A stretch of DNA of 64,000 nucleotides from Escherichia coli (lineage in GTDB: Bacteria; Pseudomonadota; Gammaproteobacteria; Enterobacterales; Enterobacteriaceae): assembly GCF_003334785.1 (NCBI RefSeq), contig NZ_QOWV01000003.1. One strand, 5' to 3'. The translations under genes were made by a program, and so were the position numbers. Shown one piece after another: positions 30,596 through 35,006 of this stretch (positions are counted from its first letter, which is position 1; every line of letters begins with the position of its first letter). The notes beneath the pieces were generated by a model that ran no database searches, was not told where the DNA came from, and worked only from the letters and a program-made list of their open reading frames with translations.

Positions 30596-32182
30596 ATGAG
30601 TCATCGTGCACGACACCAATTACTGGCGTTGCCGGGCATTATCTTTTTAGTTCTCTTTCCCATCATTCTTTCGCTATGGATTGCCTTCCTTTGGGCAAAA
30701 TCAGAAGTGAATAATCAGCTCCGAACCTTTGCTCAACTGGCACTGGATAAATCCGAGCTGGTCATTCGCCAGGCAGATTTAGTGAGCGATGCAGCTGAAC
30801 GCTATCAGGGGCAAGTTTGCACTCCAGCCCATCAAAAGCGAATGTTGAATATTATTCGTGGCTATCTTTATATTAATGAATTGATCTATGCCCGTGATAA
30901 CCATTTTTTATGCTCATCGCTGATAGCGCCTGTAAACGGCTATACGATTGCACCGGCCGATTATAAGCGTGAACCTAACGTTTCTATCTATTATTACCGC
31001 GATACGCCTTTTTTCTCTGGCTATAAAATGACCTATATGCAGCGGGGAAATTATGTGGCGGTTATCAACCCTCTCTTCTGGAGTGAAGTGATGTCTGATG
31101 ACCCGACATTGCAATGGGGTGTGTATGATACGGTGACGAAAACCTTTTTCTCGTTAAGCAAAGAGGCCTCGGCAGCAACGTTTTCTCCGCTGATTCATTT
31201 GAAGGATTTAACCGTACAAAGAAATGGCTATTTATATGCGACAGTTTATTCGACAAAACGCCCAATTGCAGCCATTGTTGCGACTTCATATCAACGTCTT
31301 ATAACCCATTTTTATAATCATCTTATTTTTGCGTTGCCCGCCGGTATTTTGGGGAGTCTTGTTCTGCTATTACTCTGGCTACGTATTCGACAAAACTATT
31401 TATCTCCCAAACGTAAATTGCAACGCGCCCTCGAAAAACATCAACTTTGTCTTTATTACCAGCCAATAATCGATATCAAAACAGAAAAATGTATCGGCGC
31501 TGAAGCGTTGTTACGTTGGCCTGGTGAGCAGGGGCAAATAATGAATCCGGCAGAGTTTATTCCGCTGGCAGAAAAGGAGGGGATGATAGAACAGATAACT
31601 GATTATGTTATTGATAATGTCTTCCGCGATCTGGGCGATTACCTGGCAACACATGCAGATCGCTATGTTTCTATTAACCTGTCGGCCTCCGATTTTCATA
31701 CGTCACGGTTGATAGCGCGAATCAATCAGAAAACAGAGCAATACGCGGTGCGTCCGCAGCAAATTAAATTTGAAGTGACTGAGCATGCATTTCTTGATGT
31801 TGACAAAATGACGCCGATTATTCTGGCTTTCCGCCAGGCAGGTTACGAAGTGGCAATTGATGATTTTGGTATTGGCTACTCTAACTTGCATAACCTTAAA
31901 TCATTGAATGTCGATATTTTGAAAATCGACAAATCGTTTGTTGAAACGCTGACCACCCACAAAACCAGTCATTTGATTGCGGAACACATCATCGAGCTGG
32001 CGCACAGCCTGGGGTTAAAAACGATCGCTGAAGGCGTCGAAACTGAGGAGCAGGTTAACTGGCTGCGCAAACGCGGCGTGCGCTATTGCCAGGGATGGTT
32101 CTTTGCGAAGGCGATGCCGCCGCAGGTGTTTATGCAATGGATGGAGCAATTACCCGCGCGGGAGTTAACGCGCGGGCAATAA
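30596..32182 (+). CDS. pdeC: c-di-GMP phosphodiesterase with periplasmic sensor domain and EAL domain
   Basis: ORF 30587-32182; start placed at ATG 30596 ([26 protein letters not shown]...) giving 528 aa; C-terminal EAL-domain motifs ([14 protein letters not shown]). Confidence 0.9.
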
Positions 32183-32184
32183 AA

Positions 32185-32508
32185 TTACAGGCGGTGGCGA
32201 TAATCGCTGGGAGTGCGATCAAACTGCCGACGGAAAACGCGGGAGAAGGTCTGCTGCGAGACATAACCCAGGTCCATTGCGATATCAAAAATCGGACGCT
32301 CGGTGGTGCGCAACTCAACGGCGGCCAGTAACAGGCGGCGTTGGCGAATGTAATCGCCAAGCGTCTGATGCGTCACCGTGCGGAACATTCGTTGCAAGTA
32401 CCACTTTGAATAGCCTGATTTTTTTGCGACTACATCAATGTTAAGCGGCTGGTCAATATGCTCGTCAATCCATGCGATAAGATCCTGAATAATTTTCTGA
32501 TGGGACAT
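32185..32508 (-). CDS. soxS: AraC-family superoxide response transcriptional activator
   Basis: 107-aa ORF MSHQKIIQDLIAWIDEHIDQPLNIDVVAKKSGYSKWYLQRMFR... Confidence 0.95.
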   Translation of the reverse strand: MSHQKIIQDLIAWIDEHIDQPLNIDVVAKKSGYSKWYLQRMFRTVTHQTLGDYIRQRRLLLAAVELRTTERPIFDIAMDLGYVSQQTFSRVFRRQFDRTPSDYRHRL

Positions 32509-32564
32509 AAATCTGCCTCTTTTCAGTGTTCAGTTCGTTAATTCATCTGTTGGGGAGTATAATT

Positions 32565-32582
32565 CCTCAAGTTAACTTGAGG
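32565..32582. promoter_or_regulatory. SoxR operator in the soxS promoter (divergent soxS/soxR control region)
   Basis: Perfect 18-bp palindrome cctcaagttaacttgagg between soxS and soxR starts. Confidence 0.85.
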
Positions 32583-32593
32583 TAAAGCGATTT

Positions 32594-33058
32594 ATGGAAA
32601 AGAAATTACCCCGCATTAAAGCGCTGCTAACCCCCGGCGAAGTGGCGAAACGCAGCGGTGTGGCGGTATCGGCGCTGCATTTCTATGAAAGTAAAGGGTT
32701 GATTACCAGTATCCGTAACAGCGGCAATCAGCGGCGATATAAACGTGATGTGTTGCGATATGTTGCAATTATCAAAATTGCTCAGCGTATTGGCATTCCG
32801 CTGGCGACCATTGGTGAAGCGTTTGGCGTGTTGCCCGAAGGGCATACGTTAAGTGCGAAAGAGTGGAAACAGCTTTCGTCCCAATGGCGAGAAGAGTTGG
32901 ATCGGCGCATTCATACCTTAGTGGCGCTGCGTGACGAACTGGACGGATGTATTGGTTGTGGCTGCCTTTCGCGCAGTGATTGCCCGTTGCGTAACCCGGG
33001 CGACCGCTTAGGAGAAGAAGGTACCGGCGCACGCTTGCTGGAAGATGAACAAAACTAA
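32594..33058 (+). CDS. soxR: MerR-family redox-sensing regulator with 2Fe-2S cluster
   Basis: 154-aa [39 protein letters not shown]...; [12 protein letters not shown] cluster-binding motif. Confidence 0.95.
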
Positions 33059-33191
33059 AGCGCCACAAGGGCGCTTTAGTTTGTTTTCCGGTCTTTGTCT
33101 TTCTCTCTATCCCGCTGGTACACAGGAGGGTTTCCCCCGACGTCAACACACCTCATTCGAGCACGTGGTGGAGGTTCCGGTTGGTGTTGAT
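33052..33191 (-). ncRNA. ryjA: possible small RNA RyjA (placement approximate)
   Basis: Recalled from K-12 annotation as a ~140-nt sRNA antisense to the soxR 3' end; the only sequence support is the bidirectional terminator hairpin at 33056-33086. Confidence 0.3.
33056..33086. terminator. bidirectional terminator hairpin at the soxR 3' end
   Basis: ctaaagcgccacaagggcgctttagtttgtttt: stem ctaaagcgcc/ggcgctttag; T-rich tail on plus, TTTTGTT on minus. Confidence 0.7.
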
Positions 33192-33603
33192 GCTTTAATT
33201 GTATGTCACCGACGTTTCTTCGCCAGTGTAAAAGTATACTTTTTAACCGCAATATTTTTGTCATCTCAGACGATTTTTTATCGCAATCCTGAACGGTATA
33301 CGGCTCGATAACGCTGCAATCTTGCGCACCGACGATAACGTTTGCGCATCAATTGCCTGGTTTTTCATCGTCAAGACAATAAAAGAGAAAAAAGCAGCAA
33401 ACTTCGGTTGAAAAAGCCGCTATGATCGCCGGATAATCGTTTGCTTTTTTTACCACCCGTTTTGTATGCGCGGAGCTAAACGTTTGCTTTTTTGCGACGC
33501 AGCAAATTGTCGCAAACCTGGAGCAGGAAGATAACGTTTCGCTGGCAGGGGATTGTCCGCCACGCATCTTGACGAAAATTAAACTCTCAGGGGATGTTTT
33601 CTT

Positions 33604-34953
33604 ATGTCTACGCCATCAGCGCGTACCGGCGGTTCACTCGACGCCTGGTTTAAAATTTCACAACGTGGAAGCACTGTCCGTCAGGAAGTGGTTGCCGGGT
33701 TAACAACGTTTCTGGCGATGGTCTACTCGGTCATCGTCGTTCCAGGTATGTTGGGTAAAGCAGGCTTCCCGCCTGCGGCAGTTTTCGTTGCAACCTGTCT
33801 GGTTGCCGGACTCGGTTCTATCGTGATGGGTCTGTGGGCTAATCTGCCGTTGGCGATTGGTTGCGCCATCTCCCTGACAGCGTTTACCGCATTCAGCCTG
33901 GTGCTGGGGCAACATATTAGCGTACCTGTCGCGCTGGGTGCCGTGTTCCTGATGGGTGTGCTGTTTACGGTAATTTCTGCCACGGGTATCCGTAGCTGGA
34001 TTTTGCGCAACTTGCCTCACGGTGTGGCGCACGGCACGGGGATTGGTATCGGTCTGTTCCTGCTGCTCATTGCCGCTAACGGTGTCGGTCTGGTGATTAA
34101 AAACCCGCTTGATGGTCTGCCCGTTGCGCTGGGTGATTTCGCGACCTTCCCGGTGATTATGTCACTGGTAGGTCTGGCGGTGATCATCGGCCTGGAAAAA
34201 CTGAAAGTCCCTGGTGGCATTCTGCTGACCATTATCGGTATCTCAATTGTCGGTTTGATCTTCGATCCTAACGTCCATTTCTCCGGCGTTTTCGCCATGC
34301 CTTCATTGAGCGATGAAAACGGCAATTCACTGATTGGCAGCCTGGACATTATGGGCGCGCTGAATCCTGTAGTCCTGCCAAGCGTTCTGGCGCTGGTGAT
34401 GACGGCAGTATTTGATGCCACCGGAACTATCCGTGCCGTCGCCGGCCAGGCGAACCTGCTGGATAAAGATGGGCAGATCATCGACGGTGGGAAAGCACTG
34501 ACCACTGACTCCATGAGCAGCGTTTTCTCTGGCCTGGTGGGTGCGGCTCCGGCAGCGGTATACATCGAGTCTGCGGCGGGTACGGCGGCGGGCGGTAAAA
34601 CCGGTTTGACGGCTATCACCGTTGGCGTGCTGTTCCTCCTGATTCTGTTCCTCTCTCCGCTCTCTTACCTCGTTCCGGGGTATGCAACGGCTCCGGCGCT
34701 GATGTACGTTGGCCTGCTGATGCTGAGCAACGTGGCGAAAATCGACTTTGCTGATTTTGTTGATGCGATGGCGGGTCTGGTTACGGCTGTATTCATCGTG
34801 CTGACCTGTAACATCGTAACAGGCATCATGATCGGCTTCGCGACTCTGGTGATTGGTCGTCTGGTTTCCGGCGAATGGCGCAAGTTGAACATCGGTACGG
34901 TCGTTATCGCCGTGGCGCTGGTGACCTTCTATGCGGGTGGCTGGGCTATCTAA
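33604..34953 (+). CDS. ghxP: guanine/hypoxanthine permease (NCS2/AzgA family)
   Basis: 449-aa polytopic [45 protein letters not shown]... Confidence 0.9.
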
Positions 34954-34976
34954 TCTTTCATCGGATTCTGAAAACG

Positions 34977-35006
34977 GGTGGCAATGGCTGCCCGTTTTTA
35001 TTTTCT
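34977..35006 (+). terminator. putative terminator after ghxP
   Basis: aaaacgggtggcaatggctgcccgtttttatttt: short stem acggg/cccgt flanked by A-run and T-run. Confidence 0.55.

Follow-up and report, generated by a model that had tools for sequence, protein, structure and literature searches.

Our analysis of the DNA upstream of the purine permease gene ghxP (yjcD, b4064) makes it likely that this gene is repressed by PurR through several operators, namely the strong boxes 1 and 3 and the weak box 2, and that a fourth motif copy nearby serves not as an operator but as a pairing partner within the leader RNA. The region lies in a 64,000-nucleotide stretch of Escherichia coli DNA (hereafter the window), for which an earlier note, made from the sequence alone, had proposed four direct copies of a PurR-operator-like motif ahead of ghxP. 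Three of the copies bear out the motif reading, and PurR is the correct interpretation, although not a new one: the link between PurR and ghxP was made between 2011 and 2019, with box 1 as the one site described so far. What we add is a second operator that appears stronger and more widespread than box 1, a weak box in the promoter core, a conserved spacing, and an account of copy 4 in terms of RNA pairing; these additions are incremental and partly inferential.

The region has the soxR–sraL–ghxP arrangement of E. coli K-12. In particular, the list of open reading frames places soxS at 32185-32508 on the minus strand and soxR at 32594-33058 on the plus strand, the small RNA gene sraL/ryjA lies at 33051-33191 on the minus strand (an Rfam match of 153 bits), and ghxP, the regulated gene, occupies 33604-34953 on the plus strand as a 449-aa permease reading frame. 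Its Shine-Dalgarno sequence (GGGGA, 33590-33594, plus strand) is part of an invariant block, CAGGGGAT, 9 nt upstream of the start codon ATG. The MG1655 record has an identical gene layout around ghxP, which is found there at 4278479-4279828 (RefSeq), so that a record coordinate equals the window coordinate plus 4,244,875. The 545-bp intergenic DNA was found in 5,421 of 5,426 complete E. coli genomes, mostly with at least 95% identity.

All four motif strings are present in the window, copies 2 and 4 exactly where they had been reported and copies 1 and 3 one base away; the copy 1 string, gataacgtttgcgca, occupies 33334-33348 and the copy 3 string, gctaaacgtttgct, occupies 33475-33488. The core WAWCGTTTGC has three matches in the 64 kb, against 0.96 expected, and all three lie here, on the plus strand and within 152 bp. 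Copy 4 reads TTTCGC, which puts it outside this core; it has only TAACGTTT in common with the other copies, a string that occurs five times in the window (2.2 expected).

We scored the copies with a PurR weight matrix derived from Table 1 of Cho 2011 (PMC3159470), using the 27 motif instances listed there besides that of yjcD, and scanned both strands of the window (127,970 positions) with it. The training sites of this matrix score between 12.1 and 25.3 bits. Copy 3 (33474-33489) ranked first of the 127,970 positions with 19.0 bits and copy 1 (33332-33347) ranked second with 18.5 bits, whereas copy 2 (33431-33446) ranked ninth in the window with 10.1-10.3 bits and copy 4 ranked 33rd with 7.0 bits. 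The third-best match, at 10959-10974 (14.5 bits), lies inside plsB and was taken as a chance match. According to exact score distributions, the chance expectation for a 545-bp intergenic region is 0.0003 matches for a score of 18.5 bits, rising to 0.036 for 10.3 bits and to 0.15 for 7.0 bits. Copies 1 and 3 are far above chance, copy 2 is marginal on its own, and copy 4 is background as a PurR site.

We refer to the first three copies as PurR boxes 1 to 3, with the sequences ACGATAACGTTTGCGC (box 1), GGATAATCGTTTGCTT (box 2) and AGCTAAACGTTTGCTT (box 3). Boxes 1 and 3 are 16-bp imperfect palindromes with a central CG whose scores fall within the range of validated sites, and box 3 outscores not only box 1 but also 9 of the 27 training sites; box 2 is borderline (10.3 bits), and copy 4 falls short of a PurR operator on the matrix. 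The matrix scan that the earlier note had proposed thus bears out its PurR reading of copies 1 and 3, including its choice of copy 3 as the best match. Its count of four PurR copies is too high, copy 2 being weak and fused to the -10 element and copy 4 not being PurR-like, and an imperfect palindrome is poorly described by the label "direct copies".

Binding of PurR to this region has been published. Cho 2011 (PMC3159470) reported a PurR ChIP-chip peak at 4,275,855-4,276,485 (older coordinates), labelled ryjA/yjcD, with a log2 value of 2.08 in the presence of adenine and no peak in its absence, and the motif given for this peak is ACGATAACGTTTGCGC, that is, box 1. When converted to window coordinates the peak covers approximately 32957-33587 and spans all four copies, and at a width of about 630 bp it does not separate the individual boxes. 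The proposal to look for PurR ChIP peaks at ghxP is hence answered by an adenine-dependent peak over the region whose motif is exactly copy 1. Furthermore, ghxP is a member of the PurR-1 iModulon of Sastry 2019, with a motif at 4278206 that is again box 1, yjcD/ghxP is repressed by adenine via PurR (Kozmin 2013; Rodionova 2021), and Kozmin 2013 cites a 4-fold drop with HAP. The literature has therefore shown that PurR occupies the region when adenine is present and that ghxP is adenine-repressed and co-regulated with the PurR regulon. The sequence of box 3 had no match in the searchable literature.

A scan for σ70-like promoters gave a single site in 32900-33800, TTGAAA-18-GATAAT, which matches 10 of 12 consensus positions, with the predicted -35 element at 33408-33413 and the predicted -10 element at 33432-33437, both on the plus strand. 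The same combination is present in 80 of 80 scorable Enterobacteriaceae sequences and in 11 of 12 further Enterobacterales loci, and in an alignment of the Enterobacteriaceae conservation is high from the -35 hexamer across the entire leader. Promoter geometry would place the transcription start at 33443-33445 on the plus strand, 6-8 nt past the -10 element. An experimental ghxP start site was found neither in the supplements of transcriptome studies nor in the PurR paper, and because the start is a predicted one the positions of the boxes relative to it are provisional: box 1 would be centred at about -104.5, box 2 at about -5.5 and box 3, in the predicted transcribed leader, at about +38.5. 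Copy 2 corresponds to the -10 hexamer together with the next nine bases, such that box 2 overlaps both the -10 element and the predicted start; its right half-site is perfect and its left half is poor. Several other readings of the promoter region were set aside. A second promoter overlapping box 1 or just 5' of box 3 lacked acceptable hexamer pairs or spacing when examined by eye, with the scan giving one site, and a σ54-type GG-N10-GC promoter likewise lacked acceptable elements or spacing by eye. UTP-sensitive reiterative transcription at the GCTTTTTTT start was rejected as a general mechanism on the grounds that the T-run after the start varies (GCCTTAATTT and similar in other genera), and the partly conserved TG...TTC..C near -82 was set aside as a CRP-like site, the match being poor.

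We compared 92 Enterobacterales ghxP loci, comprising 80 from Enterobacteriaceae (one per species) and 12 that are more distant. None of the 80 Enterobacteriaceae loci gives box 1 less than 14.7 bits. For box 3 the score is 15.8 bits or more in 79 of these 80 loci and 11.6 bits in the remaining one, and it is 15.4-22.5 bits in 10 of the 12 that are more distant. For box 2, 78 of the 80 give 10.3-13.4 bits; in two species of Mangrovibacter, in Pantoea vagans and in P. ananatis the CGTTTGC of box 2 is lost and GATAAT is kept. Nine Erwiniaceae-type loci (L087-L089 and L093-L098; Erwinia, Pantoea, Mixta, Paramixta and related) do not have box 1 but keep the promoter together with box 3 (17.3-22.5 bits). 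The position of copy 4 scores below 9 bits in 75 of 80 other Enterobacteriaceae and reaches 9.4-9.5 bits in five Citrobacter. Conservation across orthologous upstream regions, which the earlier note had named as a check, is thus found for boxes 1 and 3 (80 of 80 each) and for box 2 (78 of 80) but not for copy 4, which is not PurR-like elsewhere. As judged from these alignments, box 3 is the most widespread strong putative operator in the loci examined, with no fixed position, whereas the predicted operator box 1 is a feature of the Enterobacteriaceae and a few related loci that is positionally locked to the promoter and to box 2.

The conservation profile has a sharp upstream edge at 33322, where the heptamer TTGCGCA (33322-33328) lies 20 bp upstream of an identical heptamer within box 1; it is at least 90% identical to E. 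coli over 81 aligned upstream regions, and its flanks vary. We also considered the idea that box 1 controls sraL/ryjA. More than 800 bp separate sraL from box 1 in genera such as Salmonella, Enterobacter and Klebsiella, where a GST-like gene, encoded on the ghxP strand, comes between them, and the distance between box 1 and the ghxP promoter is fixed; together these observations argue that box 1 belongs to ghxP, and the idea was rejected.

The spacing of the elements upstream of the leader is nearly invariant. Box 1 lies 76 bp from the -35 element in 78 of 80 species and 77 bp from it in the two that are without box 2 (Mangrovibacter), the spacer between the -35 and -10 elements is 18 bp in all 80, and identity averages about 60% over the 60 bp that separate box 1 from the -35 element. 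Boxes 1 and 2 are 99 bp apart in 80 of the 80 loci in which both score (78 Enterobacteriaceae plus L090 and L092) and 100 bp apart in the two loci with a degenerate box 2, those of Mangrovibacter. (Note that 99 bp amounts to 9.4 turns at 10.5 bp per turn and is not obviously an in-phase distance.) Box 3 lies 41-205 bp downstream of the conserved -10 element in every locus that has it, the start site itself being predicted; independent insertions have occurred in Klebsiella, Raoultella, Kluyvera, Pseudocitrobacter and others, and there are 115-190 bp between box 3 and the ATG.

The constrained spacing that would mark multi-operator repression is therefore seen for boxes 1 and 2, with box 3 having no fixed spacing. 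The invariant 99 bp suggests that boxes 1 and 2 may work as a pair, so that the cooperative binding raised in the earlier note is possible for these two boxes and not for all four copies. PurR is described as a dimer that lacks the C-terminal tetramerisation helix of LacI, and it is not known to enter into any higher-order association; no means by which it would bridge boxes 1 and 2 is known, a point against looped or cooperative repression of the lac or gal type. The conservation of box 2 could instead reflect a constraint from the promoter or the initial transcript rather than PurR, and a repressor at -104.5 would have no standard route to repression by itself.

Copy 4 (33531-33543, plus strand) probably corresponds to the 3' strand of a helix, P0, whose other strand is the RNA of box 3, and it is probably this pairing, around the hairpin P1, rather than operator function that accounts for it. 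In the minimum free energy (MFE) structure of the E. coli leader, box 3 RNA at 33474-33484 pairs with 33533-33543. The palindrome AAACGTTT lies inside box 3, and a segment complementary to box 3 RNA consequently resembles a direct copy of it. P0 appears in the single-sequence MFE structure of 48 of 70 species, with a median pair probability of 0.75, and is absent from the predicted MFE structure in 20 of the 70; in a structure-blind MAFFT alignment 90.6% of its cells hold standard pairs. Its one variable pair (26:98) is C-G in 29 sequences, U-A in 24 and U-G in 12, and is never C.A; this covarying pair tracks clades.

The helix would enclose P1 (UUUGCGACG / UGUCGCAAA, 33491-33516, plus strand), whose strands, 33491-33499 and 33508-33516, begin directly after box 3, and would be followed by a second hairpin, P2 (33544-33561, plus strand). 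P1 is rich in compensatory variants: its stem occurs across genera as GCGAC/GUCGC, GUGAC/GUCAC, GUGGC/GCCAC, ACGGU/ACCGU, GCAGC/GCUGC, GUAAC/GUUAC and others, and at pair 48:64 (alignment A1) 29 sequences have G-C and 28 have A-U. P2 is formed by GGC(A)GGG / UCCGCC in E. coli and by GUGG / CCAC elsewhere, with pair 107:123 being U-A in 53 sequences and C-G in 5. In total, double changes are found at three pairs of P1, one of P0 and one to two of P2, and the P0/P1/P2 structure has 91.8% paired cells, compared with 29-48% when the 3' partners are slid. Covariation in P1, which directly follows box 3, is an argument for transcription of this region. P0 was not evident in Erwinia, which keeps box 3, so box 3 appears to be conserved independently of the RNA.

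The structured leader is a candidate for further regulation of ghxP. Among specific forms that such regulation might take, a leader peptide running from an ATG at 33466 to a TAA at 33534 (22 codons) was rejected, since it has no Shine-Dalgarno sequence, its ATG is AAG in Enterobacter, and a T-run that is 5 to 7 long across genera shifts its frame. A terminator or attenuator at P1 was rejected for either strand, the U-run lying before the hairpin and A residues lying after it. No literature was found on CsrA binding to the GGA repeats of the leader.

Four other accounts of the motif copies have to be weighed against multi-operator repression by PurR. That all four copies are PurR operators forming a cooperative array, as the earlier note had suggested, draws on the presence of an ACGTTT core in each of them within 210 bp and on the WAWCGTTTGC that three share, but copy 4 scores at a level at which 0.15 chance matches are expected per intergenic region and is not maintained as a PurR-like site in other species, and the distance between boxes 2 and 3, as well as later distances, differs by tens to hundreds of bp between genera. 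Because the spacing varies from box 2 onward, a phased four-site array does not fit, and we consider it very unlikely indeed. Scarcely more promising is the suggestion of a different regulator, by which another member of the LacI family with an AACGTT-centred operator (RbsR, GalR/GalS, CytR or Cra) would act instead of or beside PurR. The right half of copy 4, AACGTTTCGCTG, may resemble an rbs operator half-site, but this half varies, reading TTTAGC or TTTAAC in most genera. A study of GalR reported GalR ChIP signal at both purR operators, which points to cross-recognition within the LacI family. At ghxP, however, boxes 1 and 3 fit the PurR matrix in the way that validated PurR sites do and the expression data group ghxP with the PurR regulon, leaving the suggestion unsupported; we judge it very unlikely.

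A simpler account would make box 1 the sole functional PurR site, with copy 2 representing promoter elements and copies 3 and 4 representing leader RNA. This would agree with the literature, which gives box 1 alone, with the coincidence of copy 2 with the -10 element and start, and with the position of copy 3 in a leader carrying conserved RNA structure. (Note that the FIMO reporting in Cho 2011 is one motif per region, so that the absence of box 3 there is not counter-evidence.) Against it stand the score of box 3, which is the higher of the two, the Erwiniaceae-type loci, which keep box 3 at 15-22 bits without box 1 and with a differing neighbouring leader, and the expectation that an operator at -104.5 alone would not account for repression, and we therefore hold it to be improbable. 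It is also unlikely, though less so, that the conserved leader of 160 nt around copies 3 and 4 works as a regulatory RNA acting on translation, for instance one responsive to a ligand or a protein, and that the motifs are kept mainly for its sake. Such a role would accord with the plentiful compensatory change in P1, with the mostly paired state of P0 and P2, each with a covarying pair, with the high conservation of the junction AGCACAGGGAGAU, with two Shine-Dalgarno-like CAGGGGAU repeats before the true Shine-Dalgarno sequence, and with the complementarity of the P1 loop, CCCC(U), to the Shine-Dalgarno sequence in most genera. However, an Rfam 15 scan of 32000-35000 at E ≤ 1 returned sraL only, the leader matching no family; the E. 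coli leader showed no excess stability over shuffled sequence (z = 0.01); the RNAalifold consensus energy is weak, at -8.4 kcal/mol; the Erwinia loci retain the box with no evident P0; and PurR already explains the known regulation of ghxP.

In the multi-operator reading that we favor, a σ70 promoter (33408-33437) has a PurR operator of 16 bp and high quality on either side, box 1 upstream and box 3 downstream. With ample hypoxanthine or guanine, PurR bound to its corepressor would occupy the boxes and lower ghxP transcription; this amounts to negative feedback, since the bases taken up by the transporter are themselves the corepressors. Box 3 most likely would act alone, as a downstream block to early elongation comparable with those at purB and purR, and at box 2 PurR would lie over the -10 element and the start point. 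Box 1 would be an auxiliary site that loads PurR onto the weak box 2 or otherwise affects the promoter complex, a helper role suggested by its invariant distance to box 2 and the promoter. A more elaborate device, in which three operators act with cooperation or looping between boxes 1 and 2, or with an unknown bound partner, and in which pairing of box 3 RNA with copy 4 adds a post-transcriptional layer, is conceivable but doubtful.

That guanine and hypoxanthine uptake is under feedback by a repressor that those bases activate is confirmed here, having been established between 2011 and 2019. Box 1, the site that has been published, probably serves as an auxiliary operator and is largely confined to the Enterobacteriaceae, and the mechanism would be mis-assigned by databases in which ghxP has just one PurR site. 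With their invariant spacing, boxes 1 and 2 would offer a simple testable case for PurR cooperation at a distance. The transporter is also of interest in that it determines sensitivity to toxic purine analogues.

Boxes 1 and 3 share the 16-bp imperfect palindrome with a central CG that is found in the operators of the pur regulon (purF, purHD, purMN and xanP among others; ACGCAAACGTTTGCGT type), and ghxP resembles the members of that regulon in being a purine-related gene whose expression is lowered by available purines. As a rule, PurR boxes are located between the -35 and -10 elements (Cho 2011, PMC3159470). In contrast to this usual layout, the strong boxes of ghxP flank the predicted promoter, and only the weak box is on the core promoter. 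With the same matrix, xanP has matches of 18.9 and 12.5 bits that are 98 bp apart, adeP/yieG has matches of 20.3 and 12.0 bits that are 32 bp apart, and purA has a single match of 16.0 bits. Like ghxP, xanP and adeP encode nucleobase transporters, and at both of them a strong PurR box is accompanied by a second, weaker match. For purR the matrix gives 22.5 and 10.1 bits at sites 88 bp apart, at -60 and +28 from the start codon and both downstream of the purR promoter; both positions are also inferred LacI-family sites in the GalR study, and Rolfes & Zalkin 1990 reported that purR requires two control sites. The second purR site has the same score as box 2 (10.1 bits). The second matches at purR, xanP and adeP indicate that a second site of about 10 bits is normal at PurR targets, and the remark that multiple PurR copies are unusual does not hold for these genes, each of which has a strong and a weaker site. 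Of the five promoters compared, ghxP alone has two boxes above 18 bits together with a weak third.

PurR bound within purB and purR blocks elongation (Cho 2011, PMC3159470). The ghxP arrangement is like these two in that box 3, wherever it is present, follows the predicted promoter, and differs from them in that box 3 would be in an untranslated leader near the start (about +38 in E. coli) and is accompanied by an upstream operator. The lac (O1/O2/O3) and gal systems offer a further comparison, ghxP sharing with them a strictly conserved spacing between two operators. LacI tetramerises, and GalR dimers associate with the help of HU. At gal, the operators OE and OI, at -60.5 and +53.5 and 113 bp apart, are looped with HU (GalR study), and ghxP is similar to gal in having operators upstream and downstream of the promoter that do not cover it. 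Unlike in lac and gal, the invariant pair at ghxP consists of boxes 1 and 2 and not of the two strong sites, and the weak member of that pair sits at the promoter.

The RNA copy of box 3 (33474-33489), the PurR-matrix site that lies downstream of the predicted ghxP transcription start (~33443-33445), is predicted to take part in the folding of the ghxP leader. In particular, nucleotides 33474-33484 are complementary to 33533-33543, within the segment (33531-33543) that holds the fourth copy of the motif described in the earlier note, and together they would form a helix, P0, that encloses a second predicted element, the hairpin P1 (33491-33516; stem UUUGCGACG / UGUCGCAAA), which adjoins the 3' side of box 3. 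P0 appears in the predicted minimum free energy structure of 48 of 70 species and contains one covarying pair (C-G / U-A / U-G). The stem of P1 is kept across Enterobacteriaceae through many differing compensatory base changes. In most genera P1 carries a C-rich loop, CCCC(U), whose sequence is complementary to GGGGA, the Shine-Dalgarno sequence of ghxP; the E. coli K-12 loop is CAGCA.

The distance between the promoter and box 3 varies among genera. Independent insertions of ~35-160 bp separate box 3 from box 2 (33431-33446), the preceding PurR-matrix site, in Klebsiella, Raoultella, Kluyvera, Pseudocitrobacter and a Citrobacter (L076, L078, L040/L041, L046, L053-L055 and L071/L074/L079/L080), so that box 3 can lie up to 205 bp past the -10 hexamer.

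Upstream of the promoter, the spacer between box 1 (33332-33347), the PurR-matrix site farthest from ghxP, and the -35 element (33349-33407, 60 bp) is constant in length in 78 of 80 species and only ~60% identical in sequence. A few spots within it are conserved (TG at 33354-33355, TTC at 33364-33366, C at 33369 and an A-rich UP-like stretch at 33389-33401), and the spacer might be bound by another protein. A heptamer, TTGCGCA, that is conserved across Enterobacteriaceae lies at 33322-33328, outside any 16-mer that scores as a PurR site, and recurs exactly 20 bp downstream, at 33342-33348 (the 3' end of box 1).

Farther upstream lies the sRNA gene sraL/ryjA (33051-33191, minus strand; Rfam RF01408, 153 bits). 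Its terminator and the 3' end of soxR overlap, and a weak match on the sense strand at 33047-33082 is this terminator hairpin read in reverse. Salmonella, Enterobacter and Erwiniaceae carry a glutathione S-transferase-like gene between soxR/sraL and ghxP (L008 1502-2154; L025 1533-2203; the upstream genes of L087-L098), the Salmonella copy being apparently fragmented. E. coli lacks this gene and has only ~130 bp of unalignable DNA between sraL and box 1 (compare 33192-33320).

Three CAGG(G/A)(G/A)GAU-like repeats, each containing GGA, are present in the leader at 33521-33531, 33546-33553 and 33587-33594, and the last is the true ghxP ribosome-binding site. The repeats resemble CsrA sites, or the layout of a decoy or anti-SD system; a literature search on CsrA binding to the GGA repeats found nothing.

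The third-best match to the PurR matrix in the window (10959-10974, AGGCCCACGTTTGCCT, 14.5 bits) falls within the plsB coding sequence and is probably a chance match. At other MG1655 loci the matrix detected paired sites, among them xanP, where a second PurR-like match of 12.5 bits lies 98 bp from the main box (L082, NC_000913.3 3828877-3828990), and purR, where two sites lie 88 bp apart (L084, NC_000913.3 1737784-1737887). These spacings are similar to the 99 bp that separates box 1 from box 2 at ghxP.
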